A model generated the notes under the pieces. That model did no database searches. It was not told where the DNA came from and worked only from the letters and a program-made list of their open reading frames with translations. Below, one piece after another: positions 29,910 to 59,715 of a stretch of 64,000 nucleotides of DNA. Positions within the stretch are counted from its first letter, which is position 1. Each line of letters opens with the position of its first letter. The DNA comes from a bacterium GBS-1 (GTDB lineage Bacteria > Synergistota > GBS-1). The position numbers and the translations under genes were made by a program. The stretch is from contig LEKQ01000001.1 in assembly GCA_001443005.1 (NCBI GenBank), positions 142,792-206,791 of the forward strand. Direction: 5' to 3'.

Positions 29910-29939
29910 GGGGGGGAATTAAATATGTTAGGAGGATAT

Positions 29940-33170: not shown

Positions 33171-33196
33171 GGGTGATATGATTTTAACAAGAGGTG

Positions 33197-34220: not shown

Positions 34221-34571
34221 GTGATTTCATTGAAGCTTAAAGAGGTTATGAACACCCTAGAAGCTAAAATCTACACTGGGGAAGAGCTTCTTGAAAGAGA
34301 AATCAGTTTTGGTTGTGCATCAGATATGATAAGTGATATTCTAGCATTAGCTAAACCTGGTTCACTTTTGCTTACAGGTATAATCGCCCCCCAGATAATA
34401 AGGATAGCGAAAATACTAGATCTATCTGGAATAGTTATTGTTAGGGGTAAAGAGCCCATGGAAGAAACAATAGCTAAAGCAAAAGAAGAAAGGGTTCCCC
34501 TCTTAGGAACTAAATTTCTTTTATTTGATGCTTGTGGAAAACTTTACGAGAAAGGGCTAAGGGGTACATGA
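34221..34571 (+). CDS. DRTGG domain protein
   Basis: 116 aa, with GIVIVRG and the DRTGG-type C-terminus (...KGLRGT). Confidence 0.6.
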   Translation: MISLKLKEVMNTLEAKIYTGEELLEREISFGCASDMISDILALAKPGSLLLTGIIAPQIIRIAKILDLSGIVIVRGKEPMEETIAKAKEERVPLLGTKFLLFDACGKLYEKGLRGT

Positions 34572-35527
34572 GCGAGATAGAGCTTGATTTAATAAGCCAC
34601 CTAAGCGAATATAAAAGGATCTTTAGCTTCTTGACCGCAGAAGATATAATGAAAAAAGAGCTAATAACCTTAACTCCAGAGAACTATCTCTCTGAAGCAA
34701 GAGTTATAATGCGCGACAAGAGAATCTCAGGCATACCTATAGTAGATAAAGAAGGTAAACTTGTTGGTTTAGTTAGCACAGAGCGTATAATAAGAGCTCT
34801 CGAGGAAGGGATAATAAGCAATAAGATAAAGGAATACATGACCCCCCGAGAGAAGATCGTATACTTCAGTCCGAAAGATACCTTCGAAAAAATCGTAGAA
34901 ACCTTTGAAAGATATAGATACGGCAGATATCCTGTGATAGACGAGCATAACAAACTTTTAGGCCTTATAACCAAGCACGACATCTTAAGGGCTATCCTAA
35001 AACAGTTTCATTCAATATATATTCACGACAGAAGGAGAGAAGAGTATCTAAATAGGGAAGTTTCCATTCTTGCAAGTGATAAGTTTATAGAAGACAAGGC
35101 CTCTTTCAGATATGATATAAATACCCAATCCATATCAGAAGCAGGAGAGGGAACAGCCCTTCTAAAGAAGGTATTGGAAAAAAGAGGATATCATAGAGAT
35201 TTCATCAGAAGAGTAAGCATAGGGACATATGAAGCAGAGGTAAATGTAGTGATACACGCGGGAGGAAAGGGCTTGATATTAGCTTTTTTTGAAGAAGATG
35301 GTGTTGTAGTTTTTGTCAGGGACTGGGGGCCAGGAATAGAAGATATAGATTTAGCGATGAAAGAAGGTTTCTCAACCGCACCAGATCATATAAGGGAGCT
35401 GGGCTTTGGGGCTGGTATGGGATTACCAAATATGAGAAGAGCTGCTGACAGACTTGTAATACTATCGCAAAGTGGGAAAGGGACTAGAGTAGAAATGGTA
35501 TTCAACCTAAAGGAGGGAAGAGATTGA
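34568..35527 (+). CDS. CBS-pair sensor fused to GHKL (HATPase_c) ATPase domain
   Basis: Two CBS motifs (ISGIPIVDKEGKLVGLVS; YPVIDEHNKLLGLITKHD). C-terminal ATP-binding Bergerat fold (DWGPGIED...GFGAGMGLP). Confidence 0.7.
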   Translation: MSEIELDLISHLSEYKRIFSFLTAEDIMKKELITLTPENYLSEARVIMRDKRISGIPIVDKEGKLVGLVSTERIIRALEEGIISNKIKEYMTPREKIVYFSPKDTFEKIVETFERYRYGRYPVIDEHNKLLGLITKHDILRAILKQFHSIYIHDRRREEYLNREVSILASDKFIEDKASFRYDINTQSISEAGEGTALLKKVLEKRGYHRDFIRRVSIGTYEAEVNVVIHAGGKGLILAFFEEDGVVVFVRDWGPGIEDIDLAMKEGFSTAPDHIRELGFGAGMGLPNMRRAADRLVILSQSGKGTRVEMVFNLKEGRD

Positions 35528-35859
35528 AAGTAAGGGAGATCATTGAGATTTTAGATTGCGAGGTCCTAACCGGAAACGTAAATCTAGAGGAAGAAGTAAA
35601 ATACGGTTACACAAGTGACCTTCTAAGCGAAGTTATAGGCAAAGCACATCCAGACTCGGTTTGGATTACTATACAAAGTCACCTAAACATCGTTGCTGTA
35701 GCAGTATTGGTAGGTATAAAGGCAATTGTAGTCTGTGAGGGGAAAACAGTAGATCCCAAAGTAGTAGAAAAAGCTATTCAAGAAAAGGTAGCTATAATAA
35801 CTACAAGAGAAAACTCATTCAGAACTTCTGGAAAGCTATACGAAGCTGGACTAAGATAA
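35524..35859 (+). CDS. DRTGG domain protein
   Basis: 111-aa paralogue of 34221 ending ...KLYEAGLR. Confidence 0.6.
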   Translation: MKVREIIEILDCEVLTGNVNLEEEVKYGYTSDLLSEVIGKAHPDSVWITIQSHLNIVAVAVLVGIKAIVVCEGKTVDPKVVEKAIQEKVAIITTRENSFRTSGKLYEAGLR

Positions 35860-35884
35860 AGCTTCTATGTTATAATTTAGCAGG

Positions 35885-36616
35885 ATGTGGTATAAAGCTG
35901 ACCTCCACGTTCATACGGTGCTTTCGGCCTGTGCGGACTGGGAAATGACCCCAACCAACATAGTGCACAGAGCCAAGGAGGTAGGGTTAAACATATTAGC
36001 TATTACTGATCACAATACCGTTAAGAATGTGGGAGCAGGCATTAGAGCAGGTCAAAGAGAAAACATCTTGGTTATACCAGGTGTGGAGATACAAACGAAA
36101 GAAGAAGTCCATATAATAGCTCTTTTCCCCTCTGAAGAAAAAGCCCTCGCGTTTGAAGAATGGTTAAAACCCCTCTTGCCTAATTTAAACAATGATGAGG
36201 ATCTCTTTGGAGTCCAAGTTGTAGTAGATGAAGAAGACAACGTAGTAGAGATAGATAAGAGATTACTCCAAATCTCTGCTAATGCTTCAATAGAGGAAGT
36301 TATGCTTAAAGTGAAGCAACTGGATGGAGTGGCTTATCCAGCTCACATAAACAGAGATTTTTGTGGAATTATACCCACCCTAGGTTTTATTCCCCCTGAT
36401 CTCCCATTTAAAATACTCGAAATTAACCATAACACTGATCTTTCATCTTTCCTCAAAACCCATCCAGAGTTAAACGATTACGTAATATTAATTTCATCAG
36501 ATGCACATTTTCTATCATCTATAGGAAACTCAAGAACGGCCATATACCTACGAAATTTAAGCTCCAGCGAGTTAATTGAAGCAATTCAAGACAAAAGGAG
36601 GGTTAAAGTATGGTAA
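35885..36616 (+). CDS. PHP-domain phosphoesterase
   Basis: DLHVHTVLSACAD...ILAITDHN is the PHP metal-binding signature. Confidence 0.75.
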   Translation: MWYKADLHVHTVLSACADWEMTPTNIVHRAKEVGLNILAITDHNTVKNVGAGIRAGQRENILVIPGVEIQTKEEVHIIALFPSEEKALAFEEWLKPLLPNLNNDEDLFGVQVVVDEEDNVVEIDKRLLQISANASIEEVMLKVKQLDGVAYPAHINRDFCGIIPTLGFIPPDLPFKILEINHNTDLSSFLKTHPELNDYVILISSDAHFLSSIGNSRTAIYLRNLSSSELIEAIQDKRRVKVW

Positions 36617-37083
36617 AATTATCAAAAGAGAAGCTTGATAAAGTTGAAACCATATTGGATCGCTTTCCTAAAGGGCAGTCATCGTTAATAGGGGCTCTTC
36701 ATGCAATACAGCTTGAAATAGGTTATCTTCCAGAGGAAGTCCAAAAGCTTGTGGCTGAAAAACTTGAAATTCCAGAAAGCACCGTCTACGGTGTTGTAAC
36801 ATTTTACAACTTTTTCCGTAAAGAACCCGTCGGAAAGTATATAATAACCGCTTGTCAGGGAACAGCTTGTCACGTGAGGGGAGCAGGAAGCGTAATCGAA
36901 GCTTTCGAAAAAACCCTAGGAATAAAGGTAGGGCATACAACACCAGATGGAAAGTTTACGCTTGACATAGCAAGATGTTTCGGCGCATGTGGATTAGCAC
37001 CTGTTGTTATGGTCAATAACGATATATATGGAAGGATGAGCCCAAAGAAGGTAGAAGAAGTAATAGCAAAATACAGAGATTAA
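36610..37083 (+). CDS. NuoE/HoxE/HydC-like [2Fe-2S] thioredoxin-fold subunit (copy 1)
   Basis: CQGTACH...CFGACGLAPV four-Cys pattern of NuoE/HndA. Confidence 0.85.
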   Translation: MVKLSKEKLDKVETILDRFPKGQSSLIGALHAIQLEIGYLPEEVQKLVAEKLEIPESTVYGVVTFYNFFRKEPVGKYIITACQGTACHVRGAGSVIEAFEKTLGIKVGHTTPDGKFTLDIARCFGACGLAPVVMVNNDIYGRMSPKKVEEVIAKYRD

Positions 37084-37634
37084 TGGAGGAACTATCTCTA
37101 CACCTAATAGACTTAATTGAAAACTCTATAAGCGCTAAAGCCTCTTTAATAAAGATCCTTATCGAAGTAAGTAAATCAAACGATCTAATAAAGATAGTTA
37201 TAGAAGATAACGGAGAGGGTATGAATGAAGAGGAAATCGAAAAGGCAAAAGATCCATTCTTCACAACCAAAAAGAACAAAAAAGTTGGTTTAGGTATTCC
37301 TATATTTGCTCAAATTGTTGAGTCTTGCGGAGGAAGATTTGAAATCGTTAGCCAAAAGGGGAAGGGAACAAAAGTCAACGCTGAGATGAAGCTTAGTCAC
37401 ATAGATCGCCCCCCATTGGGAGATCTCGCTTCAACCTTATTCACATCTATAATAGGGCACCCTGATGTAGACTTTTTAATAAAGATAAAGACTGATGAAG
37501 GAATCGTTGAGATCAACACAGCAGAAATTAAAGAGTTTTTGGGGGAAAGCTCCTTCAACCATCCTGAGGTTATAATCTTTTTAAGAGAGAACATTGATAG
37601 AGAAATAAAAGGCATACTGAAAGGAGGTATATAA
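37083..37634 (+). CDS. histidine-kinase-like ATPase (HATPase_c only) associated with hydrogenase operon
   Basis: N/G1/G2 boxes (IEDNGEGM; GLGIP). No sensor or DHp domain. Conserved position after NuoE, as in bifurcating hydrogenase operons. Confidence 0.7.
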   Translation: MEELSLHLIDLIENSISAKASLIKILIEVSKSNDLIKIVIEDNGEGMNEEEIEKAKDPFFTTKKNKKVGLGIPIFAQIVESCGGRFEIVSQKGKGTKVNAEMKLSHIDRPPLGDLASTLFTSIIGHPDVDFLIKIKTDEGIVEINTAEIKEFLGESSFNHPEVIIFLRENIDREIKGILKGGI

Positions 37635-37985
37635 ATGAAGATTGAGGAGCTCAGGAAACTCAGAGAAAAGGTGAGGGAAGACCTTAAATTAAGGGAAGGA
37701 ATAGAACCTAGAGTAAAGATTATAGTTAGCATGGGGACATCTGGAATAGCTGCAGGAGCAAGAGAGGTATTAAAAGCCTTGTTAGACGAGGTAGCAAAGA
37801 GGGAATTAAAGGATGTGATTGTACTACAAACGGGAGAAAAGGGATTAGCATCAGCTGAACCAATAGTAGAGGTTGTTACTAAAGAGGCTACAATAACCTA
37901 CGGTAGAGTAACACCAGAAATCGCGAGAAAGATTGTTATTGAGCATGTGATAAACGGAAGGGTTCTATCCGAATATGTAATATAA
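37635..37985 (+). CDS. thioredoxin-like ferredoxin-fold protein (HndB-like), cysteine-free
   Basis: 116 aa with the HndB/NuoF N-terminal-domain pattern but no cysteines at all. Confidence 0.55.
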   Translation: MKIEELRKLREKVREDLKLREGIEPRVKIIVSMGTSGIAAGAREVLKALLDEVAKRELKDVIVLQTGEKGLASAEPIVEVVTKEATITYGRVTPEIARKIVIEHVINGRVLSEYVI

Positions 37986-37986
37986 C

Positions 37987-40900
37987 ATGACCCTTAAAGG
38001 AGGCGGTGAGAAATTGCCTAAGAGAACTGACCTTCTAATATGTTTGGGAGCGGGTTGCGTTTCCTCGGGCAGTGAGCTTATAAAGAAAAAGCTTGAAGAA
38101 AAAATAAGAGAAAAAGGACTTGAGAATGAAGTAAGAATTATAGGTACAGGTTGCATGGGTCCTTGTGAAAGGGGACCCGTTATAATGATATACCCAGAGG
38201 GGGTATTTTACCAGAGGATAACCTTAGAAGATGTCGACACTATCGTTGAACAGCATCTGCTTAAAGGGAAGATCGTTGAAAAGCTTCTCCCCAAGGAAGA
38301 ATTAGCCCCAAGCATTAAAGAAAAAGAAATTCCATTCTTCACCAAACAGAAGAAGATAGTTTTATCTAACTGCGGTATTATAGATCCAGAGAAGATAGAA
38401 GAATACATAGCGGTAAACGGATACGAAGCTTTAGCCCGCGTTCTTGAAGGCATGACTCCAGAGCAAGTTATAGCAGAAATAGAAAAGTCTGGATTAAGAG
38501 GCAGAGGTGGCGCCGGATTTCCTACAGGAGCTAAATGGAAGTTTGTGAGAAACGCCCAAGGCAAGCCTAAATTCGTCGTATGTAACGCTGACGAAGGAGA
38601 CCCGGGTGCCTTTATGGACAGAGCGGTATTGGAAGGAGACCCTCACGCTGTCTTAGAGGGAATGCTTATCGCCGCTTATGCCGTAGGAGCGGAGCAAGGG
38701 TACATCTACGTGAGAGCTGAGTATCCCTTAGCCATAAAGAGGCTTCAAATAGCTATAGACCAAGCTCGTAAGTACGGATTCTTAGGGAAGAACATACTGG
38801 ATACGGACTTCTCCTTTGATATAGAGCTCAGAATCGGAGCTGGAGCTTTCGTCTGTGGAGAGGAAACAGCTTTACTTGCCTCCATAGAGGGTAAAAGAGG
38901 CATGCCAAGATCAAAGCCTCCATTTCCAGCAACTCATGGACTTTGGGGTAAACCTACCTTGATAAACAACGTAGAAACCTATGCCAACGTGAGGCATATT
39001 ATACTTAACGGTGCAGACTGGTTTAGAAGTTTTGGAACCCCATCATCTCCTGGAACAAAAGTATTCGCCCTATCTGGAAAGGTTAGGAACACAGGCTTAA
39101 TAGAAGTTCCCATGGGGACAACTCTTGGAGAGATTGTTTTCGACATAGGGGGCGGAATAATAGGAGATAGAAAGTTTAAGGCTGCACAAACGGGAGGTCC
39201 TTCAGGAGGTTGCTTGACTGTTAAGCACCTTAACCTACCGTTAGATTATGAATCTGTGAAAGAAGCAGGAGCAATAGTTGGCTCAGGCGGACTCATAGTC
39301 GTCGATGAAACTACATGCATGGTTGAACTTGCTCGTTACTTTCTAGAATTCTGTCAAGAAGAATCCTGTGGCAAATGTACACCATGCAGAGTAGGAACTA
39401 AAAAGATGCTCGAGATCCTTGAAAGAATAATTCATGGAAAAGGAACACTTGAAGACTTAGATAGGCTTGAGGAAATTGGAATGTGGGTTCAGCAAACCGC
39501 TCTCTGTGGATTAGGGCAAACGGCTCCCAACCCAGTCCTAAGCACTCTTAAATACTTCAGAGACGAATATGAAGCACATATTATAGATAAAAGATGTCCA
39601 GCTGGGGTCTGTGCCGACCTATTTATAGCTCCTTGCGAAAACGCTTGCCCAGCTCACGTGGACGTCCCAGCCTACATAGCTCACATCTCAGAAGGGAGAT
39701 TCAAGGAGGCCTTCTACGTACACATAAAGAATAATCCGTTCCCATCGGTATGCGGTAGAGCTTGTCCAGCACGCTGTGAAAGCTATTGTAGAAGACTTCA
39801 GGTAGATGAATCCATAGCGATAAGACAGCTCAAGAGATTTATGGCAGATAAGGCTATTGAGGAAAAGTGGGAGCTTCCTAAACCTGAAAGATATAACGGC
39901 AAGAAAGTGGCCATAGTTGGAGCTGGTCCTGCAGGATTAAGCGCAGCTTACTTCCTCAACCTTAAAGGATATAAGGTCACCGTCTTCGAAGCCCTTCCTG
40001 AACCTGGAGGAACCCCTACTCACTATATCCCTGAATATCGTCTACCAAAGGAAATAATCCTGGAAGAGGTAAGAAGAATAGAGAGATCTGGAGTCGAGAT
40101 AAGGGTCAATCACCCAATAACTGATTTAGAAGCCCTTAGAAAAGACTATGACGCAGTTTTCTTAGCGTGTGGAAGCATGAAAGAGACGAAGCTTAACGTT
40201 CCTGGAGAGAACCTGAAGGGAGTCCTAAGTGGCATGGAATTCCTAGGTAAAGTCAAGAAGGGAGAGAAGCCAGATATAGGCAAGAAAGTAGTAGTCATAG
40301 GAGGAGGAAACACAGCTATCGATGCTGCAAGAACGGCTTGGAGATTGGGAGCAGACGTTCATGTTATCTATAGAAGAACGAGAGATGAAATGCCAGCCCT
40401 TCATGAAGAAATAGAGGAAGCAGAAAGAGAGGGAATAAAGTTCACGTTCCTTGCAACACCAGTTAAGTTCCTAGAGGAAGATGGAAGGGTTAGAGCTGTT
40501 AGATGTATAAGCATGAAACTTGGAGAGTTTGACTCAACTGGTAGAAGAAAACCCATACCGATAGAAAACTCGGAATTCGATGTAGAAGCTACAAGCGTCA
40601 TAGTAGCAGTTGGACAAAGAGCTGACCTCGCGTTTAAGGTAGATGGTCTTGAACTAACCAGTTGGGGAACTATAAAGGTTGACCTAAGAACGCTTAAAAC
40701 CTCCTTGGAAGGGGTCTTCGCAGGCGGAGATGTTGTTCGTGGACCTTCAACAATCGTAGAAGCTGTAGCTGATGGAAGGTTAGCAGCTTCAATGATAGAC
40801 AAATACCTTGGTGGAGATGGTATACTATGGTACGAAAGTAGGGAATCAGTGAAAACCACATATAATGAGGAAGAATATCTCAAAACCCAGCCAAGGAGAA

Positions 40901-41040
40901 AGCCTGTTATCCTACCAGTAGATAGAAGAAGGAACTTCGCTGAGGTAGAAAAAACTTTCTTTGAAGGACAAGCTGTGGAAGAAGCAAGAAGATGTTTACA
41001 CTGTGACATAAAAGAGGAGGTCTTATTAGAAGAGGGGTGA
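37987..41040 (+). CDS. NuoF-like flavoprotein fused to GltD-like NAD(P)H:FAD oxidoreductase (1017 aa)
   Basis: N-terminal 2Fe-2S Trx-like domain (CLGAGC...CMGPCERGP). NuoF core (GLRGRGGAGFPTG; ESCGKCTPCR). GltD-type Fe-S region (CPAHVD...CGRACPARCE). Two dinucleotide folds (VAIVGAGPAG; VVVIGGGNTAIDAA). Confidence 0.85.
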   Translation: MTLKGGGEKLPKRTDLLICLGAGCVSSGSELIKKKLEEKIREKGLENEVRIIGTGCMGPCERGPVIMIYPEGVFYQRITLEDVDTIVEQHLLKGKIVEKLLPKEELAPSIKEKEIPFFTKQKKIVLSNCGIIDPEKIEEYIAVNGYEALARVLEGMTPEQVIAEIEKSGLRGRGGAGFPTGAKWKFVRNAQGKPKFVVCNADEGDPGAFMDRAVLEGDPHAVLEGMLIAAYAVGAEQGYIYVRAEYPLAIKRLQIAIDQARKYGFLGKNILDTDFSFDIELRIGAGAFVCGEETALLASIEGKRGMPRSKPPFPATHGLWGKPTLINNVETYANVRHIILNGADWFRSFGTPSSPGTKVFALSGKVRNTGLIEVPMGTTLGEIVFDIGGGIIGDRKFKAAQTGGPSGGCLTVKHLNLPLDYESVKEAGAIVGSGGLIVVDETTCMVELARYFLEFCQEESCGKCTPCRVGTKKMLEILERIIHGKGTLEDLDRLEEIGMWVQQTALCGLGQTAPNPVLSTLKYFRDEYEAHIIDKRCPAGVCADLFIAPCENACPAHVDVPAYIAHISEGRFKEAFYVHIKNNPFPSVCGRACPARCESYCRRLQVDESIAIRQLKRFMADKAIEEKWELPKPERYNGKKVAIVGAGPAGLSAAYFLNLKGYKVTVFEALPEPGGTPTHYIPEYRLPKEIILEEVRRIERSGVEIRVNHPITDLEALRKDYDAVFLACGSMKETKLNVPGENLKGVLSGMEFLGKVKKGEKPDIGKKVVVIGGGNTAIDAARTAWRLGADVHVIYRRTRDEMPALHEEIEEAEREGIKFTFLATPVKFLEEDGRVRAVRCISMKLGEFDSTGRRKPIPIENSEFDVEATSVIVAVGQRADLAFKVDGLELTSWGTIKVDLRTLKTSLEGVFAGGDVVRGPSTIVEAVADGRLAASMIDKYLGGDGILWYESRESVKTTYNEEEYLKTQPRRKPVILPVDRRRNFAEVEKTFFEGQAVEEARRCLHCDIKEEVLLEEG

Positions 41041-41047
41041 TTAAAGC

Positions 41048-41512
41048 ATGATTGGAGAGATCCTGAAGAGGTTCGAGCCGAGGAGAGAGAATCTATTGGA
41101 TATACTTCATGCCATGCAAGAAGCATCACCCACCAACAGCCTTTCAAAAGAAGACATAGAAGCTGTTGCTAAGTATGTCGGTATAACACCAGCAGAAGTC
41201 TGGGGAACCGCTACATTTTACTCCATGTTCTCTGTCAAACCTAGAGGAAAGTACGTAATAAGGGTCTGTACCTCACCAGCTTGTCATCTATTAGGAGGAG
41301 AAAGCGTCTTAGAAGCACTTAAAAGGGAACTGGGAATCGATGTAGGAGAAACGACGAAGGACGGAGTTTTCACACTGGAAACCTCGAGCTGCTTAGGAAT
41401 TTGCGGTGTAGCTCCGGCTATGATGATAGATGAAATAGCATATGGGAACCTCACCCCTGAGAAAATTAAAGAGATAATTCTTAGCTATAGAAAGAGGGGA
41501 GAAGAATCATGA
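41048..41512 (+). CDS. NuoE/HydC-like [2Fe-2S] subunit (copy 2)
   Basis: CTSPACH...CLGICGVAPA four-Cys motif. Confidence 0.85.
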   Translation: MIGEILKRFEPRRENLLDILHAMQEASPTNSLSKEDIEAVAKYVGITPAEVWGTATFYSMFSVKPRGKYVIRVCTSPACHLLGGESVLEALKRELGIDVGETTKDGVFTLETSSCLGICGVAPAMMIDEIAYGNLTPEKIKEIILSYRKRGEES

Positions 41513-43074
41513 TAAGAATAGAAAGGGCGCATATTCTCGTCGGCATAGATCAGGGCTCGATCTTAGCTGGAGCAAGGGACGTCCAAAAAAAGCTCGAGGA
41601 AGAGATTAAAAAGCGCGGTCTTGAAACCGAAATAAGAGTCCTTGAAACGGGAAGCCTTGGAATAACAGGAAGGGGAGTCGTTCTTCTAGTTTACCCCGAA
41701 GGCGTATATTACGTTAACGTAAAAGTTGAGGATGTTCCAGAAATAGTGGAAGAACACCTGCTTAAGGGCAGATTCGTTAAACGTCTCATGCTCGAACCTC
41801 AACTGGCAGAAATCCTCGCTAAAGGAGAGTTTCCTAAAAAACTCTCAAAGCAAAAAAGGGTGGTTCTTCAAAATGCAGGTGTTATAAATCCAGACAGCAT
41901 AGAAGAATACATTGCTGTTGGAGGATACGAAGCTTTAGCTAAGGCTCTTGAGTCATCTCCAGAGTGGGTTATAAACGAAATAGATAACTCAGGCTTAAGA
42001 GGCAGAGGTGGTGCTGGATTCCCAACAGGGAAGAAATGGAAGTTCACTGCTGAAGTTAAAGCTCCTCAGAAGTTCATAATATGTAATGCAGATGAAGGAG
42101 AACCAGGTACTTTCAAAGATAGGCTTATACTTGAAGGTGATCCTCACAAGGTCCTTGAAGGCATGGCCATCGCAGGCTACGCAGTAGGTGCAAACAAGGG
42201 CTATCTCTATATAAGAGGTGAATATGACCTGTCTATTCGTAGGATAAGCAAAGCTATAGAAGATGCTTATAAGATGGGATTACTTGGTGATAACGTATTG
42301 GATAGCGGCTTTTCCTTCCATGTGGAAATTAAGAAGGGAGCAGGTGCCTATGTATGCGGAGAGGAAACGGCCTTAATAGAGTCTATAGAGGGGAAGAGGG
42401 GAAATCCTCGTCCCAAACCACCTTACTACCCTGGTATAAAGGGACTTTGGGGGTATCCTACAGTGGTAAATAACGTTGAAACCTTAGCTAATGTCCCTCC
42501 AATAATACTGAACGGAGCAAGTTGGTTTAAGAGTATGGGAACGAAGGAATCCCCAGGCACCAAGGTTTACACCATCTTAGGACATGTTAAAGAACCAGGG
42601 TTAATAGAAGTAGAAATGGGAACAACGCTTAGAGAAGTTATCTTTGAGTTTGGTAAGGGAATGAGAAATAATAGAGAATTCAAAGCTGCACTAATAGGGG
42701 GAGCGGCGGGAGCTTTCTTAGGGAAAGAAGCCCTTGATATCCCTCTATCCTATGAAGGTCTTAGGGAGTATGGGGGAGTCTTAGGATCAGGAGCTATCCT
42801 TGTGCTTGATGACTCGACATCAATCACCGATATGCTACAAAACGTGATATCCTTCTTCAAACATGAAAGTTGCGGGAAGTGTGTCCCGTGCCGAGTAGGA
42901 ATTACTAAGCTACTTGAAAGGATGGAGAAAGGTACCCTACTTGAAAAAGATCTCAAGGAAATGATAGAGATATCAGAAAAGATGGCCGATACAGCACTTT
43001 GTGCTTTAGGCCAATCGTTAATTCTTCCCGTATCAAGTGCAGTCCGTTTCTTCAAAGAAGAACTTACAGCATAG
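41509..43074 (+). CDS. NuoF/HydB-like NADH-binding flavoprotein subunit (copy 2)
   Basis: GLRGRGGAGFPTGKKW and ESCGKCVPCR. The N-terminal Trx-like domain lacks Cys and there is no C-terminal ferredoxin domain. Confidence 0.85.
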   Translation: MIRIERAHILVGIDQGSILAGARDVQKKLEEEIKKRGLETEIRVLETGSLGITGRGVVLLVYPEGVYYVNVKVEDVPEIVEEHLLKGRFVKRLMLEPQLAEILAKGEFPKKLSKQKRVVLQNAGVINPDSIEEYIAVGGYEALAKALESSPEWVINEIDNSGLRGRGGAGFPTGKKWKFTAEVKAPQKFIICNADEGEPGTFKDRLILEGDPHKVLEGMAIAGYAVGANKGYLYIRGEYDLSIRRISKAIEDAYKMGLLGDNVLDSGFSFHVEIKKGAGAYVCGEETALIESIEGKRGNPRPKPPYYPGIKGLWGYPTVVNNVETLANVPPIILNGASWFKSMGTKESPGTKVYTILGHVKEPGLIEVEMGTTLREVIFEFGKGMRNNREFKAALIGGAAGAFLGKEALDIPLSYEGLREYGGVLGSGAILVLDDSTSITDMLQNVISFFKHESCGKCVPCRVGITKLLERMEKGTLLEKDLKEMIEISEKMADTALCALGQSLILPVSSAVRFFKEELTA

Positions 43075-43089
43075 GAGGTGTTTAATACT

Positions 43090-44928
43090 GTGAGAGAGGT
43101 AAAACTCAAGATAGACGGAAAGGAAGTTATAGCAACAGAAGGCATGACAATACTTGAAGCAGCAAGAAAGGCTGGTTTTGAAATTCCTACTCTTTGCTAT
43201 CACGATGGATTATCTGCACATGGTGGATGCAGACTCTGTGTAGTCGAAGTTAAAGGTTCTCCAAGGCTTCTAACAAGCTGTACCACCCCTGTAACCAACG
43301 GAATGGAGGTATCTATAAACACAGACCGTGTTAAAGAGGCTCGTAAATTCGTAATGAACCTTATAATGACCGAAAGAAACCACTTCTGCATGTTCTGCGA
43401 AAAAAGCGGAAGATACGAAGAAACCGATTGTGAACTTCAAAAGAGAGCTTACGAAGTCCAGATAGAACACTTCCCGTTCCCAGTATATGTTAATAAATAT
43501 CCAATAGACACAACGTCACCAGTTATGGTAATGGACCACAACCGTTGCATACTCTGTGGCAGATGTGTTAGAGTCTGTTCGGAAGTCGTAGCTAACTCAA
43601 CCTTAGACTTCAGCTTCAGAGGTTCAAAAGCCTTGATAGCTTCAGATACAGGCTTGAACAGGGGGGAATCAAGCTGCATATCCTGTGGAGCTTGCATGCA
43701 AGTATGTCCTGCGGGAGCGTTGTTCAGCAAGTTTGGAGGATATAAAGGAAAGAAGAGCTTGTGCGAAAAGATAGAAACATTCTGCCCCATATGTGGTGTC
43801 GGTTGTGAAACAACCAACTATGTGCGTTATAACAACATAGTTGAGATAGAGGGAAGCGGTCTGGCTAAGGGAAACTTAGATGGAGGGCAGCTCTGCGAAA
43901 AAGGAAGATACGGTCCCTTGATGGAAACGAGGAACAGGATATCTCTTCCGCTCCTTAGGGATTCCAGAGGAAGATTTGTAGAAAGTAGCTACCAGGAAGC
44001 AATAAACAAAAGTATACAGCTGCTTAAAGCCTATTCCCCAGACAAGATAGTCTTCAGAGTCTCTTCCTTCCTACCAGCGGAAGACCTAGCCTACATAAAA
44101 GGGTTCGCTCTCAAGCTTGGAGTAAAAGATATAGACACCTTCGATGGAGAAATATATAGGAATTTGATATCTTTCGATTACCCTAAAGCGAACTACGAAG
44201 ACATCCTTAACTCAGACCTAATCATACTTGTGGGTGGCGACATTGTGAAAGAACATGGAGTGGTTGGATCTTACATAAGGAGAGCCGTTAGGAATAAAGG
44301 CGCTGAATTAATCATAATCTCTCCAGCAGAAAGCAAGATGGATAGATTCTCCAAGGAGGTAAGGAGAGTTGCGGAAGGCAGTGAAGGTTCAGTCGTCAAA
44401 GAATATGAGGAGAAAATAAGGAAAGCTTCTAACCCAGTGATAATTCTTGAGGGCGCTTATCTTCTTAAAAACAGGGAAGCAATAGAATCATGGCTTAAAT
44501 TCGCTGAAGCGTCAAAGGTTAAAACTCTACCTCTACCCCCCACAGGTAACAGCTTAGCAGCTTGGAAGCTAGGTATATCGTCTAAATCCAACGAGAATAC
44601 AGAATCCGGAAAACTTCTTTTCCTCATCCTCGGAGATATAGATTCTAGCTACTCACCCGCATCCTTAGCTGAGCTAGGCTTCGAAGCAATAATACTCCAT
44701 GGAGCTTATATAGACCCGATGATGAAGCTAGCTGATGTCGTTTTGCCTGGAAAAAGTTGGCTTGAAAATGAAGGAACATATAAGCTAATAAGCGGAGAAG
44801 TTAAGAAGTTTACGCCTATACTCCGGGCAGAAAAGGATGCGAAGAGCCCAAGGGAGCTACTTTCTGAGCTTGCAGACGCCTTAAGATTAGGTAAAATTGA
44901 TATAGATAGTTTAATTACAAGTTTGTAA
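43090..44928 (+). CDS. NuoG/HydA-like Fe-S subunit (2Fe-2S + 4Fe-4S N-terminus, truncated molybdopterin-like C-domain)
   Basis: CYHDGLSAHGGCRLCVV; CILCGRCVRVC; CISCGACMQVCP. No H-cluster motifs. GTG at 43090 has AGGAGGTG upstream; the track start at 43078 overlaps the SD. Confidence 0.8.
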   Translation: MREVKLKIDGKEVIATEGMTILEAARKAGFEIPTLCYHDGLSAHGGCRLCVVEVKGSPRLLTSCTTPVTNGMEVSINTDRVKEARKFVMNLIMTERNHFCMFCEKSGRYEETDCELQKRAYEVQIEHFPFPVYVNKYPIDTTSPVMVMDHNRCILCGRCVRVCSEVVANSTLDFSFRGSKALIASDTGLNRGESSCISCGACMQVCPAGALFSKFGGYKGKKSLCEKIETFCPICGVGCETTNYVRYNNIVEIEGSGLAKGNLDGGQLCEKGRYGPLMETRNRISLPLLRDSRGRFVESSYQEAINKSIQLLKAYSPDKIVFRVSSFLPAEDLAYIKGFALKLGVKDIDTFDGEIYRNLISFDYPKANYEDILNSDLIILVGGDIVKEHGVVGSYIRRAVRNKGAELIIISPAESKMDRFSKEVRRVAEGSEGSVVKEYEEKIRKASNPVIILEGAYLLKNREAIESWLKFAEASKVKTLPLPPTGNSLAAWKLGISSKSNENTESGKLLFLILGDIDSSYSPASLAELGFEAIILHGAYIDPMMKLADVVLPGKSWLENEGTYKLISGEVKKFTPILRAEKDAKSPRELLSELADALRLGKIDIDSLITSL

Positions 44929-44949
44929 TCATTTAAGGAGGAGATTAAG

Positions 44950-45489
44950 TTGGCTAAGGTAAGGGTTGCCACTACATGGCTCGAGTGTTGTTCAGGATGT
45001 CACATGTCCATTCTAGACTTGGATGAAAAATTAGTTGACTTACTATCCAAGATAGAGTTCGATGCAAGTCCAATAACAGATATAAAAGAGTTTGGCGAAG
45101 TAGATGTGGGAATAGTAGAGGGTTCTGTCGGAAATGAAGAACAACTTGAGGTGCTGAAGAAGATACGCGAAAAGGCCAAAATCCTTATAGCCCTTGGTGA
45201 TTGTGCTTGTTTCGGAGGCATACCTGCCATGAGGAATTTCTTCAACAAAGATGAGGTGCTAAAGAGGGTCTACATCGAAACTGAAAGCACTGTTAACCCA
45301 AGCAAGGTTATACCAAGCTTAGATGTTCCTAAGATATTTCCAAGCGTTAAATCTATAGATCAATTTGTTAAGGTTGACGTTTATATACCCGGATGCCCAC
45401 CAGACCCAAGAGCTATAGAATACGCTATAAAGGAGCTCCTTGAAGGCAAGATACCCGTATTACCGCCAGAGCTCTTATCGTATGAATGA
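44950..45489 (+). CDS. [NiFe]-hydrogenase small subunit (group 3, HoxY/HydS-like)
   Basis: WLECCSGCHMS proximal cluster motif and GDCACFGG. 179 aa. Confidence 0.9.
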   Translation: MAKVRVATTWLECCSGCHMSILDLDEKLVDLLSKIEFDASPITDIKEFGEVDVGIVEGSVGNEEQLEVLKKIREKAKILIALGDCACFGGIPAMRNFFNKDEVLKRVYIETESTVNPSKVIPSLDVPKIFPSVKSIDQFVKVDVYIPGCPPDPRAIEYAIKELLEGKIPVLPPELLSYE

Positions 45490-45504
45490 GGAGGTGCTTG
45501 TTCT

Positions 45505-46932
45505 GTGGAACAAAGGATAGAAGTTTTTCCCGTAACCAGAGTCGAGGGACATGGAAAGATAACAATTCATTTAAATGAATCAGGAAAAGTAGAAAAGACC
45601 TTCTTCCATGTAACCCAAATAAGAGGGTTCGAGAAGTTCTGCGAGGGAAGGGTCTTCTGGGAAATGCCTGTAATGACACAAAGAGCTTGTGGAATCTGTC
45701 CTGTAAGTCACCATCTTGCCTCAGCTAAGGCTACAGATAAGATCCTAGGAGTAGAGATACCACCGACAGCTAAAAAGCTCAGAGAGCTTATGCATATGGG
45801 GCAGTTAGTTCAATCTCATTCATTACACTTCTTCCATTTAGCAAGCCCAGATCTCTTACTGGGAATGGATGCTGATCCTAAAATAAGAAATATCGTAGGA
45901 GTGATAGAAAAACACCCCGATCTTGCTGTAAGAGGAGTTAAACTAAGAAAGTATGGACAAGAAGTAATAAAGACCCTTAGTGGGAAAAGGATTCATCCGC
46001 GCTTCGCTATACCAGGTGGGGTTAACAAAGGACTTTCCATAGAAGAAAGAGATATGCTTTTGAGAGACATAGATTGGGTAATAGATAGCCTTAGAGACAC
46101 GGTTAAGCTTATCAAAAATCTCGCTGAGAATTGGGGAGAAAGGTTCAGAAGGTTTGCTTCCTTCCCTTCTTTCTATATGGGGCTCGTTGATGAAAATGGG
46201 AATCTAGACCTATATCATGGCAAGATAAGGCTTTGTGACCATCGTGGAAGAATTATAGATGAGTTCAGCGAGGATAACTACCTTGAAAAGATAGGTGAAT
46301 GGGTTGAGCCTTGGTCTTACATGAAGTTTCCATTCTATAAAGAGCTTGGCTACCCAGAGGGAAGCTACAGAGTAGGTCCATTGGCAAGACTAAATTGCTG
46401 TGATGATATTTCCACTCCCTTAGCTAAAGAGGAACTAACAGCCTTTCGCCAAATGATAGGAGACAAGGTAGCAGAAGGGTCGCTATTCTACCACTATGCA
46501 AGAATGATAGAAGCTTTACATGCTGCTGAACGTTTAAAGGAACTCCTAGAAGACCCAGATATAACTGGGACAGAACTTCGAGCAGTAAGTAGAGAGTTCA
46601 AACCCGAGGGTATAGGAGTTTTAGAGGCACCCAGAGGAACCCTAATTCATCATTATAAGGTGAACGAAAACGGCGAAATAGTAAAGGCCAACCTAATAGT
46701 AGCGACGGTTCATAACAACCACGCCATGAACAAGGCCGTTGAACTTATAGCAAAAGAGTACATTAAGGGACCGGAGATAAAGGAAGGATTCCTAAACATG
46801 CTTGAGGTAGCGATAAGATGCTATGACCCATGCCTTTCATGCGCCACTCATGCTCTTGGAAAGATGCCTCTTCAGGTTATCATCTACGATGCTGAAGGTA
46901 ATAAGGTTAACGAGCTGGTGAGAAATCACTGA
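45505..46932 (+). CDS. [NiFe]-hydrogenase large subunit (group 3, HoxH/HydL-like)
   Basis: N-terminal RACGICPVSHH and C-terminal DPCLSCATH Ni-binding motifs. Confidence 0.95.
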   Translation: MEQRIEVFPVTRVEGHGKITIHLNESGKVEKTFFHVTQIRGFEKFCEGRVFWEMPVMTQRACGICPVSHHLASAKATDKILGVEIPPTAKKLRELMHMGQLVQSHSLHFFHLASPDLLLGMDADPKIRNIVGVIEKHPDLAVRGVKLRKYGQEVIKTLSGKRIHPRFAIPGGVNKGLSIEERDMLLRDIDWVIDSLRDTVKLIKNLAENWGERFRRFASFPSFYMGLVDENGNLDLYHGKIRLCDHRGRIIDEFSEDNYLEKIGEWVEPWSYMKFPFYKELGYPEGSYRVGPLARLNCCDDISTPLAKEELTAFRQMIGDKVAEGSLFYHYARMIEALHAAERLKELLEDPDITGTELRAVSREFKPEGIGVLEAPRGTLIHHYKVNENGEIVKANLIVATVHNNHAMNKAVELIAKEYIKGPEIKEGFLNMLEVAIRCYDPCLSCATHALGKMPLQVIIYDAEGNKVNELVRNH

Positions 46933-47384
46933 TTGCAGTAGTAGGATATGGAAACTACTTGAGAAAAGACGATGGCATAGGTCTGTGGCTTGGAAGCAGG
47001 TTAAGGCTAAAGTTTAAACAAAAAGTAAGAGTTTACCTTTTGCATCAGTTGGTACCTGAAATCGTTGAGGAGCTCAAGGAAGCCGATCACATAATATTCA
47101 TAGATGCTTCATCTTCAAATGAAGAGTGGTCATTAAGAAGGCTCAGTTTAGGGGAGGAAGAGTTTCAACCTCCCCTAAATTGTGATTTTCATACCTTCTA
47201 TCCGGAAGAGCTGGCTTATCTACTAAAAAGACTTTATGGGAAGAAGCCGGAAATCTGGATATTAAGCGTGAAAGGTGAGAATTTTTCTTTTGGGGCTGGC
47301 TTAAGCTTAAATGCACGAAGATTGGCAAAGGAAGCAGAAAACCTGCTTGAGGGATTGATAAGGGTGAAACTAAAAGATGCATGA
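46929..47384 (+). CDS. hydrogenase maturation endopeptidase (HoxW/HycI family); apparent CTG start overlapping hoxH stop
   Basis: The conserved N-terminus IAVVGYGNYLRKDDGIG lies upstream of the first TTG/ATG. In-frame CTG at 46929 is embedded in CTGA with the large-subunit stop. Confidence 0.7.
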   Translation: MIAVVGYGNYLRKDDGIGLWLGSRLRLKFKQKVRVYLLHQLVPEIVEELKEADHIIFIDASSSNEEWSLRRLSLGEEEFQPPLNCDFHTFYPEELAYLLKRLYGKKPEIWILSVKGENFSFGAGLSLNARRLAKEAENLLEGLIRVKLKDA

Positions 47385-47730
47385 GTTTTCTATCGCAGAG
47401 TCTTTAATGGAAATAGTTTTAGAGGAAGCAACAAAACACAGAGCTTCGAAAATACTCAGGGTAAAAATAAGAGCTGGAAAGCTGATGGGAATAGTTCCTG
47501 ACCTCTTAACCTTCGCATTTAAATCCCTCTCAGAGGAAACTATAGCTGAAGGGGCTGAACTTGAAATAGAAGAAATCCCTTTCCAGGGGAAATGCCGCAA
47601 TTGTGGTTTCTTCTTTAGCATAGGTGATTTCTTTGGTATATGTCCCCAATGTGGAAGCGATAACTTGGAAATAGAAGGGGGCAATGATTTAGAATTAGTC
47701 GGACTTGAGATCGAAAGGAGTGAAAATTAG
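47377..47730 (+). CDS. hypA: hydrogenase nickel insertion protein HypA
   Basis: MHEFSIAESL N-terminus and CxxC...CxxC zinc site (CRNCG...CPQCG). Confidence 0.9.
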   Translation: MHEFSIAESLMEIVLEEATKHRASKILRVKIRAGKLMGIVPDLLTFAFKSLSEETIAEGAELEIEEIPFQGKCRNCGFFFSIGDFFGICPQCGSDNLEIEGGNDLELVGLEIERSEN

Positions 47731-48396
47731 TTGGAAATAAAGGTCATAAGAAAGATACTTGAAGCAGGTTCGAAAGTAGCAGAAACGAATAGAAAGATTT
47801 TGAAGGAAAAGGGAATTATTTCATTTAACTTCATTGGAGCTCCGGGAAGCGGAAAAACCTCTCTTCTATTAAGAATAATAGAAGCCTTAAGTGATAAATA
47901 CAAGATAGGCGTAATCGAAGGAGACTTGGCAACAACTAAAGATGCTGAGCTCATACACGAAACCGGGGTTCCCGTAGTTCAAATAAATACCGACGGAGGC
48001 TGCCACCTTGATGCAAATCTAGTAGGAAAAGCACTGGAGGAGCTACCTCTTGACAGGATAGATGTATTAATAATAGAAAACGTTGGCAACCTTGTATGCC
48101 CAACAGCCTTTGATTTAGGTGAAGACTATAAAGTAGGGGTCCTTAGCGTTCCGGAGGGAGATGACAAGCCAGAAAAATACCCTGTGATAGTCAAGGTATC
48201 CAAAGCCATAGTCTTAAATAAGATAGATATGCTACCTTACTTCAGATTTGACAAAGAGAAGTTCTACCAGCCTATAAAAAGGATTTCTCCAAATACCCCC
48301 GTCTTTGAGGTCTCTTGTGAGACAAAAGAAGGTATAAGTAGCTTCGTAAACTGGATGATTTCAAAAATAAACCAAAAGGGGGGCGAGGGGAAATGA
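47731..48396 (+). CDS. hypB: hydrogenase nickel incorporation GTPase HypB
   Basis: GAPGSGKTSLL P-loop and CH motif (GGCHLDA). Confidence 0.9.
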   Translation: MEIKVIRKILEAGSKVAETNRKILKEKGIISFNFIGAPGSGKTSLLLRIIEALSDKYKIGVIEGDLATTKDAELIHETGVPVVQINTDGGCHLDANLVGKALEELPLDRIDVLIIENVGNLVCPTAFDLGEDYKVGVLSVPEGDDKPEKYPVIVKVSKAIVLNKIDMLPYFRFDKEKFYQPIKRISPNTPVFEVSCETKEGISSFVNWMISKINQKGGEGK

Positions 48397-48977
48397 ACAA
48401 GAGGATTCTTATCATCGTGGGGGATTTTGTAGAAGACTATGAGGCTATGGTTCCATATCAGATGCTTCTCATGCTCGGATATAACGTAGATACGGTCTGC
48501 CCAGGTAAGAAAGCAGGGGAAAGGGTTAAAACCGCAATACATGACTTCGAGGGAGACCAAACCTATAGTGAGAAACCTGGTCATCTTTTCGCCATAACCA
48601 AGGATTTCGACAGCGTAAAAGTCGAGGATTACGACGGATTAGTTATCCCTGGTGGGCGAGCTCCTGAATATCTCAGGACCAATCCGAAGGTCATCGAACT
48701 CGTAAAGAAGTTCGCAGACGCTAAGAAACCCATAGCGGCAATATGCCATGGCCCACAACTTCTAACAGCAGCAAGAATCATAAGCGGAAAGAAAATCTGT
48801 GCTTACCCTGCAGTGGGAGCTGAAGTAGAACTTGCAGGGGCAACATATGTACCTCCAAATGAAACCTTCTCAAACGCTGTGGTAGACGGGATATTCGTAA
48901 CAGCACCAGCCTGGCCGGCACATCCGGAGTGGATCAGAAAATTCGTAGAGTTACTCGGGGCTAAGATAGAGATATAG
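48393..48977 (+). CDS. DJ-1/PfpI family protein
   Basis: AAICHGPQLL nucleophile-elbow Cys in a DJ-1/PfpI fold. 194 aa. Confidence 0.85.
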   Translation: MNKRILIIVGDFVEDYEAMVPYQMLLMLGYNVDTVCPGKKAGERVKTAIHDFEGDQTYSEKPGHLFAITKDFDSVKVEDYDGLVIPGGRAPEYLRTNPKVIELVKKFADAKKPIAAICHGPQLLTAARIISGKKICAYPAVGAEVELAGATYVPPNETFSNAVVDGIFVTAPAWPAHPEWIRKFVELLGAKIEI

Positions 48978-48988: not shown

Positions 48989-49027
48989 GTTGGAAGAAAG
49001 AGCCGCTAGTAAGCTCTTTCTTCCAAC
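48989..49027. terminator. bidirectional terminator hairpin between convergent pfpI-like and ABC ATPase genes
   Basis: Perfect 15-bp stem GTTGGAAGAAAGAGC / GCTCTTTCTTCCAAC with a 9-nt loop. Confidence 0.7.
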
Positions 49028-49037: not shown

Positions 49038-50078
49038 TTAAGCTTCAAAGACATGAACGGCAGTAGCCTTAAATCCAGCAAAGAGTTTCTTGCCTGGCTG
49101 TATGCCAATTTCAACTGCTGAGGAACGCGTTACCAAGGCTTTGAGTGTTAACCCTCCAACATCCAAGGTAACCTTAAATAAACCTCCAATATCCATAACA
49201 TCTACTACAGTAGCCTCAAGCATATTTCTAAGCGAGCTCCTAAAAGGCTCTTCGGATAGAATTATATCCTCAGAGCGAACAGCTATCCTAACTCTACCAA
49301 AGTACCTCGTGGGAAGCACTATCCTGACTCCATTGGCTTCAAGAAGTTCACCGTTAGCCATACCCTCGATTATGTTCTCAAAACCCAAAAAGGAGGCAAT
49401 ATTCTCATCCCTAGGGTTAGAAAAGACTTCCTTCACACTTCCAACCTGAGACATCCTTCCATCTAACATTACCCCCACTCTATCTCCAAGAAGCAGAGCC
49501 TCCTCGAAGGAATGGGTAACATGTATCACAGTTAAGCCAAGCTCTCGTTTCCAAACCTTCATCTCAAGGATCAACCTAGAAGTAGTTGATGGATCAAGGT
49601 TAGCGAAGGGCTCATCTAAAAGCAAAAACTTACTACCAATAGCTAAACCTCTAGCAATAGCAACGCGCTGCGCTTCGCCTCCGCTTAGCGTTGAAGGCCT
49701 TCTTTCAAGAAGGTGCTCTATGTTAAGTACTGACGCTATATTTTTAACTACGTTTGAAATCTTATCTTCGGAGAGTTTTCTAATCTCAAGCCCATAGGCT
49801 ATATTTTCATAAACGGTCATATGGGGGAAGAGGGCATAGTTTTGAGGAACATAGGCAAAGCCCCTTTTTTCCGGCTCAAGAAACGTGATATCCTTCCCCT
49901 TCCATATTATCCTTCCCCTATAGGGGAAAAATATACCAGCTATAATCTCAAGTAATAAAGTTTTACCGGCCCCGCTTGGTCCAAGAACTATAAAATAATC
50001 CCCTTCGTAAACCTTGAAAGACACATCGTTAAGACTAAAATCTTTCCAACTTCTATATACACTTTGAAGCTCAAGCAC
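49038..50078 (-). CDS. wtpC: molybdate/tungstate ABC transporter ATP-binding protein with C-terminal TOBE domain
   Basis: GPSGAGKT Walker [16 protein letters not shown] signature, and a C-terminal TOBE-like domain. Confidence 0.8.
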
Positions 50079-59709: not shown

Positions 59710-59715
59710 GAGAAA

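Follow-up and report, generated by a model that had tools for sequence, protein, structure and literature searches.

The DNA analysed here is a window of 64 kb from contig LEKQ01000001.1 of the bacterium GBS-1 (assembly GCA_001443005.1), and its central part carries genes for a putative [NiFe] hydrogenase with a single catalytic core and two different flavoprotein modules. Each module, called a head below, consists of a NuoE-like subunit (HydC) and a NuoF-like subunit (HydB). Twelve genes follow each other on the forward strand: hydC1 (nuoE1), hisK, hydD, hydB1::gltD (nuoF1::gltD), hydC2 (nuoE2), hydB2 (nuoF2), hydA, hydS, hydL, a maturation protease gene, hypA and hypB. The listing of open reading frames (ORFs), Pfam and NCBIfam matches and a reading of the junctions bear out an earlier note on this DNA, as far as the identities, coordinates, order, common direction, tight packing and overlapping junctions of these genes are concerned. 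Proteins closely related to those of the window are assigned by annotation to metagenome-assembled genomes (MAGs) of Synergistota, the phylum of Acetomicrobium mobile. An identical fusion protein, within the same order of genes, is encoded on a contig from the Great Boiling Spring 77 C sediment metagenome and in other assemblies. The genome was inspected within the 64-kb window, and 97 related loci were mapped by blastp against the window proteins.

Junctions between neighbouring genes range from -8 to +26 nt, with a TAATG overlap at NuoE1/HisK and ATGA overlaps at NuoE2/NuoF2 and HypB/DJ-1. Between the two heads, the NuoF1 stop is followed by the NuoE2 start after 7 nt. A GAGGGG ribosome-binding site lies within the 3' end of nuoF1, and the terminator scan found no terminator-like site near this junction, in keeping with a shared operon. 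The same junction and the 3' end of nuoF::gltD are spanned by a 248-residue antisense ORF (40401-41147, reverse strand), which most likely exists by chance within conserved coding sequence.

The co-directional block is longer than twelve genes. Past hypB it goes on with a DJ-1/PfpI gene, then a hairpin, then a convergent ABC transporter; the inverted repeat between the convergent genes is the probable end of the transcript, and the terminator scan left it unflagged, there being no T-run after it. The DJ-1/PfpI gene holds the same position at 87-89% identity in two related loci (L091 and L006), as if it were a member of the hydrogenase operon. Upstream, a regulatory set of DRTGG, CBS-HATPase, DRTGG and PHP genes (34221-36616) accompanies the block, as it does in loci L006, L091, L092 and L095. 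Its sole sizeable gap, of 25 nt, lies before the PHP gene and coincides with a promoter-like pattern; such pattern sites are rarer in the region than in shuffled sequence. Concerning maturation, the view that only hypA and hypB are present in the window holds for HypD, HypE and HypF, whose domains are absent from its larger ORFs; HypC was not searched for.

Table 1. Features of the hydrogenase gene block and its borders (window coordinates).
Feature	Coordinates	Strand	Basis
DRTGG-domain protein, upstream regulatory set	34221..34571	+	Pfam DRTGG
CBS-CBS-HATPase protein, upstream regulatory set	34532..35527	+	Pfam CBS x2 and HATPase_c_2; 77% identical in L006
Second DRTGG-domain protein	35524..35859	+	Pfam DRTGG
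Promoter-like site TGGACT-18-TATAAT with TG, at the 25-nt gap	35847..35876	+	Consensus scan, 10/12 matches; pattern match only
PHP-domain protein; 7-nt overlap with nuoE1 start	35885..36616	+	Pfam PHP, PHP_C
HydC1/NuoE1	36610..37083	+	PF01257, 179 bits
HisK-like, HATPase domain only	37083..37634	+	Pfam HATPase_c
HydD, 116 residues, cysteine-free, thioredoxin-like	37635..37985	+	No Cys; weak 2Fe-2S ferredoxin match
HydB1::GltD (NuoF1::GltD fusion), 1017 residues	37987..41040	+	Pfam; A. mobile HydB match
HydC2/NuoE2	41048..41512	+	PF01257, 165 bits
HydB2/NuoF2, 521 residues	41509..43074	+	Alignment to 7t2r_B; cysteine census
HydA, NuoG-like, without H-cluster	43078..44928 (probable start 43090)	+	Pfam; 7t2r_A match
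HydS, NiFe small subunit, 179 residues	44950..45489	+	PF01058
HydL, NiFe large subunit, HoxH-like	45505..46932	+	L1/L2 motifs; 7t2r_D match
Hydrogenase maturation endopeptidase	46959..47384	+	TIGR00072, E = 5.5e-16, above curated cutoff
HypA	47377..47730	+	PF01155, 112 bits; one gene caller starts at 47407
HypB	47731..48396	+	PF02492 cobW/HypB/UreG
DJ-1/PfpI, last gene of the block, overlaps hypB stop	48393..48977	+	PF01965
14-bp perfect inverted repeat between convergent genes	48990..49026	.	Read from sequence

The first head resembles that of a bifurcating enzyme. In HydC1 the cysteine census finds Cys82, 87, 123 and 127, and the PDB matches of this subunit are HydC chains (8a6t_C and 7t2r_C). 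The fusion protein is made of a bifurcating-type NuoF/HydB (residues 1-546) and of a GltD/NfnA-type FAD and NADPH module (residues 547-1017). Residues 13-546 align to HydB of A. mobile (7t2r_B, 819-820 bits) up to ...DKRCPAGVC, ending at residue 546; beyond it, A. mobile HydB continues into a ferredoxin-like domain with two [4Fe-4S] clusters and HydB1 into the GltD module. Ligands of the N-terminal [2Fe-2S] cluster (C19, 24, 56 and 60) and of the NuoF [4Fe-4S] cluster are present, along with the motifs PGAFMDR (AFM) and GGPSG. The GltD module, recognized by Pfam as Fer4_20 and Pyr_redox_2, is closest to the NfnA insert of Caldicellulosiruptor (443 bits to residues 102-568 of 9bov_A). It keeps the FAD and NADPH glycine motifs GAGPAG and GGGNTA, as well as YRRT and a terminal RCLHC, and the stretch of the fusion from residue 537 to residue 601 contains eight cysteines. 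Judged by these features, HydC1 and HydB1::GltD are the predicted orthologue of the A. mobile HydBC pair, a bifurcating-type head, and the module, as proposed before, appears to be of the NADPH type, with FAD and two [4Fe-4S] clusters.

Two small genes, hisK and hydD, lie between hydC1 and hydB1::gltD. HydD contains no cysteine at all, in agreement with its earlier description as a cysteine-free thioredoxin-like protein; it is 38% identical to the NuoF2 N-terminus and 77% identical to the product of the gene directly before E2-F2 in locus L086. The succession NuoE-HATPase-thioredoxin-like-NuoF had been described as one that normally precedes [FeFe] bifurcating hydrogenases. Such specificity is ruled out by the A. 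mobile [NiFe] operon, which also has hisK and hydD (PMC9304861, PMC8880783); the cassette is therefore what normally opens that NiFe operon and not an [FeFe] borrowing. In A. mobile, the products of hisK, hydD and the protease gene are absent from the purified enzyme even though the genes lie in its operon (PMC8880783, PMC9304861).

The second head is of another kind. HydC2, 42% identical to HydC1, has its four cysteines in place (Cys74, 79, 115 and 119). HydB2, when aligned to 7t2r_B (590 bits), has all four cysteines of the N-terminal cluster replaced; its only cysteines are at positions 192, 283, 455, 458, 461 and 498, so that the thioredoxin-like N-terminal domain has none, and the C-terminal domain with two [4Fe-4S] clusters is absent. 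PGTFKDR (TFK) and GGAAG replace AFM and GGPSG, two motifs by which bifurcating enzymes are recognized in the literature (Losey et al. 2020, PMC7311640; Hox preprint 10.64898/2026.06.25.734504). Non-bifurcating beta subunits have Thr/Ser and Lys/Ser/Ala at positions 232 and 234 of Thermotoga maritima HydB and no GGPSG (Losey et al. 2020, PMC7311640). HydB2 follows this pattern, with Thr and Lys at the two positions, no GGPSG and fewer Fe-S domains. The pair would then be a non-bifurcating-type head, with FMN and one [4Fe-4S] cluster predicted in HydB2 and one [2Fe-2S] cluster in HydC2.

The earlier note had matched the second half of the region to the bifurcating HydABCSL type. That match is not supported by a NuoF2 without AFM, GGPSG, the N-terminal cysteines (cluster B2) or the C-terminal clusters (B3/B4); the roles are reversed, and it is NuoF1 that is HydB-like. 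The nearest characterised counterparts of HydB2 in these features are Syntrophomonas wolfei Hyd1ABC and Syntrophus aciditrophicus HydAB (PMC7311640), with which it shares Thr/Lys near the NADH site and the lack of both GGPSG and additional Fe-S domains. Those, however, are single-head [FeFe] enzymes, whereas HydB2 keeps its cysteine-free thioredoxin-like N-terminal domain and adjoins a bifurcating-type head.

Downstream of both heads lies the catalytic core. HydA, whose start is more likely the GTG at 43090, 11 nt downstream of GGAGG, is 612-616 residues long and shows the Pfam domains Fer2_4, NADH-G_4Fe-4S_3, Fer4, Molybdop_Fe4S4 and Molybdopterin, the molybdopterin-fold domain being present; the Pfam scan gave no Fe_hyd_lg_C domain. 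Its cysteines fall into groups (40/51/54/68, 104/107/118, 157-167, 200-210 and 236/239/243/273) that correspond to five clusters in the standard A1-A5 pattern. HydS has the cysteines of the proximal cluster only and no Tat signal. HydL possesses a complete NiFe site, formed by the two CxxC pairs of motifs L1 (RACGICPVSH; C62 and C65) and L2 (DPCLSCATH; C443 and C446), and then a tail of 26 residues, the C-terminal extension for proteolytic maturation. A precomputed Pfam match to HoxH and 52-55% identity to cyanobacterial HoxH place HydL with group 3d-like enzymes. One NuoG/HydA-like gene and one NiFe pair are encoded, and no second NuoG-, HydA- or NiFe-type gene occurs in the 64-kb window.

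The homology of this core to the five-subunit HydABCSL, as suggested earlier, is sustained: the best match among solved structures for HydA, both HydBs and HydL is A. mobile NiFe-HydABCSL (PDB 7T2R/7T30; Feng et al. 2022, PMC8880783), with 353 bits to chain A, 819 (NuoF1) and 590 (NuoF2) to chain B and 637 to chain D; the match of HydL to 5xf9_D amounts to 465 bits. The A. mobile operon follows the same logic, C-HisK-D-B-A-S-L-protease (PMC8880783, PMC9304861), and its HydB shares AFM, GGPSG and the N-terminal cluster cysteines with HydB1. The window differs by an extra HydC2-HydB2 pair between hydB and hydA, by a shorter HydA (692 residues in A. mobile) and by a HydB1 in which the GltD module stands instead of the B3/B4 ferredoxin-like C-terminal domain, the proposed ferredoxin site. 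Set against the NiFe-Bfu group, where BfuB holds clusters B1, B2 and B3/B4, HydB1 has B1 and B2, and HydB2 only B1; of the group's further marks, AFM and GGPSG are present in HydB1 and missing from HydB2, and the H-cluster-free HydA with clusters A1-A5 is there.

Three other families share parts of this architecture. The GltD module is most similar to the NfnA/StnC inserts of the Nfn-Bfu/Stn enzymes of Caldicellulosiruptor saccharolyticus (9BOV), Thermococcus sibiricus (9N5U) and Sporomusa ovata (StnABC, 8OH5), with 443, 433 and 359 bits; YRRT and RCLxC, the GltD-type FAD/NADPH module with two [4Fe-4S] clusters and its combination with a BfuBC-type core are common to both. In Nfn/Stn, though, GltD is inserted in BfuA after the N-terminal [2Fe-2S] domain, where the A clusters connect it to BfuB, and BfuB keeps its C-terminal clusters. 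In the window it is fused to the C-terminus of BfuB, a GltD domain is missing from the sole BfuA-like protein (43078-44928), and hydrogenase genes are part of the cluster. Group 3d Hox enzymes (HoxEFUYH; Hydrogenophilus 5XF9) resemble the window in their HoxH-type large subunit, by Pfam and identity, and in a HoxY-type small subunit with the proximal cluster only. They differ in having a short HoxU of ~240 residues, where HydA is long and NuoG-like, and a single HoxE/HoxF diaphorase instead of two E/F pairs; cyanobacterial HoxF, with AFM, GGPSG and N-terminal cysteines, resembles HydB1 and not HydB2. Finally, uncharacterised [FeFe] HydABC enzymes with HydB::GltD, such as that of Thermanaeromonas toyohensis, have the same fusion at 58-63% identity and the same preceding C-HisK-D genes. 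In those enzymes an [FeFe] HydA comes immediately after the fusion; in the window a second NuoEF pair comes next, and then the NiFe core. An [FeFe] HydB::GltD is mentioned in passing for Vallitalea guaymasensis (PMC6163223).

The two heads did not arise by a recent duplication. NuoF1 and NuoF2 are 53% identical, and in a neighbour-joining tree of 42 NuoF domains (Kimura distances, bootstrap) NuoF2 falls among short flavoproteins of ~523-545 residues (clade bootstrap 100%, or 97% with the second NuoF, Fb, of the Chloroflexi tandem locus L013), while NuoF1 groups with canonical HydB, GltD fusions, cyanobacterial HoxF and the first NuoF, Fa, of L013 (95.5%). A recent tandem duplication of NuoEF is ruled out by this identity, by the separate clades (95-100%) and by the presence of one member of each clade in the Chloroflexi locus; the tree shows the two to be ancient paralogues.

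Both are also actively maintained. Nonsynonymous divergence (dN) from locus L091 is 0.109 for NuoE1, 0.083 for NuoF1 and 0.117 for the GltD part, 0.124 for NuoE2 and 0.100 for NuoF2, next to 0.094 for HydS and 0.099 for HydL. Synonymous divergence (dS) is saturated; for the comparisons that do allow a dN/dS ratio to be calculated, it does not exceed ~0.06. Both heads are thus held under purifying selection as strict as that on HydS and HydL, and with dN equal to that of these subunits the first module is not a decaying relic.

The earlier note had named synteny in relatives as a check on its reading, and the gene order does recur. L091 retains the tandem order in full, with an F1::GltD of 1004 residues, and so does L006, where HydL is 89% identical and F1 is a canonical HydB of 601 residues with two CxxCxxCxxxCP motifs. 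In L013, a Chloroflexi MAG, the succession at 40-60% identity is E-HisK-D-F (601 residues, AFM, two [4Fe-4S])-E-F (short, TFK, no Cys)-G-S-L-protease-HypA-HypB. The same ordered cassette precedes other catalytic subunits as well: a single [FeFe] HydA with HydE/G/F maturases in L092 (GCA_017880035.1, 4430-11404), and a single FdhA of 903 residues with FocA and FdhD in L095 (GCA_900175145.1, 6429-14403). In these last two loci the first NuoF stops right after the CRAGVC pair, neither C-terminal domain being present.

Each head type can also be found alone with such a core. E-F::GltD stands directly before G-S-L in 25 of the 54 informative loci of HydL relatives, mostly from Dehalococcoidia (~20) but also from Atribacterota, delta-proteobacteria and Acidobacteriota; there is thus nothing unusual in a NiFe enzyme served by a GltD-type NuoF. 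Nearly all of the Dehalococcoidia loci (L009 and ~20 others) have an extra ORF of ~200-240 residues, ~40-60 nt after HydL, that resembles the N-terminal Fe-S part of NuoG (32-39% identity) and is absent from the window. L086 has HydD-E2-F2-G-S-L-protease, hence the second head alone with a NiFe core. Stand-alone E-F2-type pairs occur at four loci (L087, L096 and L097 among them) with no partner nearby, and tandem trimers, in which each head type has its own [FeFe] HydA, at two Syntrophorhabdaceae-type loci (L088 and L094). A scan of metagenome contigs with NuoF2 gave two loci only, one of which is a 1.9-kb fragment.

The trimer arrays raise the question whether the first head is a remnant: a deletion would have removed the catalytic gene that separated two adjacent three-gene operons, and HydC1-HydB1::GltD would serve a HydA- or Fdh-like subunit encoded at a distance, or be vanishing. 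Full trimers of both head types do stand in tandem in L088 and L094, and our view is limited to 64 kb of the genome. Yet the head-type order in the arrays is the reverse of that in the tandem cassette, both proteins of the head are intact and as conserved as HydL at saturated dS, and at least six loci of distinct lineages retain the arrangement. We consider this explanation quite improbable.

A more serious competitor, although still an unlikely one, is that a single transcript encodes two enzymes: a non-bifurcating NADH-linked [NiFe] hydrogenase HydC2-HydB2-HydA-HydS-HydL, and a free-standing HydC1-HydB1::GltD NADH/NADPH oxidoreductase, possibly ferredoxin-dependent in the manner of Nfn, that adjusts the pyridine-nucleotide pools. 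The second half is by itself a full unit in L086, stand-alone NuoEF pairs exist, and the first head would hold an NADH site (FMN), an NADPH site (the module with YRRT and the 443-bit match) and two [2Fe-2S] clusters of the kind proposed as the ferredoxin branch of Hox. With three potential sites in the head, an independent transhydrogenase in the lineage of the window is plausible; it would leave the orthologues without GltD unexplained. Indeed, the first head lacks GltD in L006, L013, L092 and L095, where no transhydrogenase is possible, yet it occupies the same position; having no site beyond NADH and ferredoxin, it needs a downstream catalytic subunit, and the sole one encoded nearby is that of the locus. 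In the loci examined, E-F::GltD is moreover nearly always directly before HydA or G-S-L, and characterised Nfn-Bfu/Stn enzymes need a BfuA-type subunit with the GltD insert (PMC9304861).

We therefore favour a single operon encoding a cytoplasmic [NiFe] hydrogenase that belongs to the same (Bfu) family as A. mobile HydABCSL and in which two heads would dock alternately on one HydA-S-L core; we give this reading a probability of about 0.4. That both heads serve the same core, probably as alternatives, is the most likely arrangement for several reasons. Only one NuoG/HydA-like gene and one NiFe pair are encoded in the window, the first head of L006, L013, L092 and L095, devoid of GltD, would have no use apart from the shared core, each head type by itself accompanies such a core elsewhere (E-F::GltD-G-S-L and L086), the ordered cassette precedes G-S-L, a single [FeFe] HydA or a single FdhA, and the heads are ancient paralogues constrained like HydS and HydL.

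Alternate docking is preferred because the solved structures of HydABC, HydABCSL and Nfn hold one BC pair per A subunit. The same structures tell against one stoichiometric supercomplex, as the earlier note had envisaged, with both heads bound at once to a HydA-S-L oligomer (for example as mixed protomers) and H2, NADH, NADPH and perhaps ferredoxin coupled in it; neither does HydA, with its standard A1-A5 cysteine pattern, bear any sign in its sequence of a second docking site. All genes are translationally packed as one block, the cassette has been inherited as a unit before three kinds of catalytic subunit, and, A. mobile HydABCSL being a dimer of pentamers (PMC8880783), one can imagine mixed oligomers. 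On balance we find such a supercomplex unlikely. The comparative data suggest that both modules are functionally tied to one core, from which simultaneous binding does not follow.

Several points weigh against alternating heads. Given the trimers with their own HydA in L088 and L094, the tandem form could be a two-operon array minus one catalytic gene, and the genome outside the window may encode another HydA-like partner. The lone E-F2-type pairs in L087, L096 and L097 indicate that an F2-type pair need not bind an adjacent catalytic subunit. With its third site, for NADPH, which the counterpart in L006 lacks, head 1 could work alone. Lastly, the assignment of the heads as bifurcating and non-bifurcating relies on sequence signatures.

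If HydB1C1 and HydB2C2 do alternate on the same HydA-S-L core, two enzyme forms would result. With HydB2C2 the enzyme would be a plain NADH:H+ oxidoreductase that could run when H2 pressure is low. With HydB1C1 it would be a coupled enzyme, linking H2 to NAD(H) and NADP(H) and possibly to ferredoxin, and the NADP(H) site of GltD would stand at the usual end of the low-potential branch, in the place of the ferredoxin-binding domain. Ferredoxin might then be served through the [2Fe-2S] clusters of HydC1 and HydB1. A ferredoxin branch through this pair of clusters has been proposed for cyanobacterial Hox, which likewise lacks B3/B4 (10.64898/2026.06.25.734504).

Several neighbouring genes may bear on the metabolic setting. 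An aldehyde:ferredoxin oxidoreductase (AOR) gene (29925-31754, forward strand), with a 129-residue 4Fe-4S protein just upstream, is followed by ThiS-like, DAO (32025-33170) and ornithine cyclodeaminase-family (OCD; 33194-34180) genes, so that the set, in the same orientation, immediately precedes the hydrogenase regulators; at the equivalent position L091 has a sarcosine-oxidase-like set with DAO, OCD and an SNF transporter. Through amino-acid catabolism, the AOR/DAO/OCD set may supply the hydrogenase with reduced ferredoxin and NAD(P)H. We also considered a link of head 1 to this AOR, 5 kb upstream, in the manner of Wor-Bfu, and rejected it: no BfuA-like gene lies alongside, and unrelated genes lie in between. 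The ABC transporter that converges on the operon end (49038-51842, reverse strand) consists of a permease, a binding protein of the SBP_bac_11 family and an ATPase whose TOBE domain points to uptake of molybdate or tungstate; this would suit the tungsten-type AOR close by.

Further away, a bifunctional NAD(P)H-hydrate epimerase/dehydratase gene (YjeF_N and Carb_kinase; 25633-27174, forward strand) lies 10 kb upstream and a riboflavin kinase/FAD synthetase gene at 16653-17537; they are probably coincidental neighbours of an operon rich in flavin and NAD(P)H. On the other side, a cellulose-synthase-like cluster (54849-61770, forward strand) contains glycosyl hydrolase family 8, GGDEF, DUF2334, family-2 glycosyltransferase and BcsB-like genes. 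An ORF at 62071-62967 (reverse strand) with Mpt_N, the N-terminal domain of methylene-tetrahydromethanopterin dehydrogenase, adjoins a D-glutamate cyclase gene and is unusual for a Synergistota-like fermenter.

All components of the hydrogenase come from known families, and the recurrence of the cassette across lineages is the most interesting result. Within our incomplete coverage of the literature, which leaves their absence unproven, neither tandem HydBC-HydBC cassettes nor NiFe enzymes that contain HydB::GltD came up, and the Bfu family survey (PMC9304861) yielded no BfuB::GltD class. As a tentative and rather doubtful generalization, the cassette might be a device, independent of the catalytic module, that switches a hydrogenase or formate dehydrogenase core between bifurcating and NADH-linked modes. 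In the lineage of the window an NADPH module has, in addition, taken the place of the ferredoxin domain in the bifurcating-type head. The result would be a H2:NAD+/NADP+-coupled enzyme whose low-potential branch is taken over, or shared, by NADP(H).

Bifurcation by HydABC and other Bfu enzymes is under active structural study, and which parts of HydB and HydC decide on it and on the partners is a current question. One core encoded with a bifurcating-type and a non-bifurcating-type head is a natural experiment on what decides bifurcation; another is the bifurcating-type head that occurs in close relatives with three kinds of C-terminus (none, two [4Fe-4S] clusters, or GltD/NADPH). The NuoF::GltD-NuoG-HydS-HydL arrangement, mostly of Dehalococcoidia, appears to be biochemically uncharacterised; from it one would expect soluble, NADPH-linked NiFe hydrogenases beyond group 3b. 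If both heads share one core, the scoring of such clusters as bifurcating in metagenome surveys would change, and anaerobes would have a new means of matching their H2 metabolism with H2 pressure as well as with the pools of NADH, NADPH and ferredoxin.

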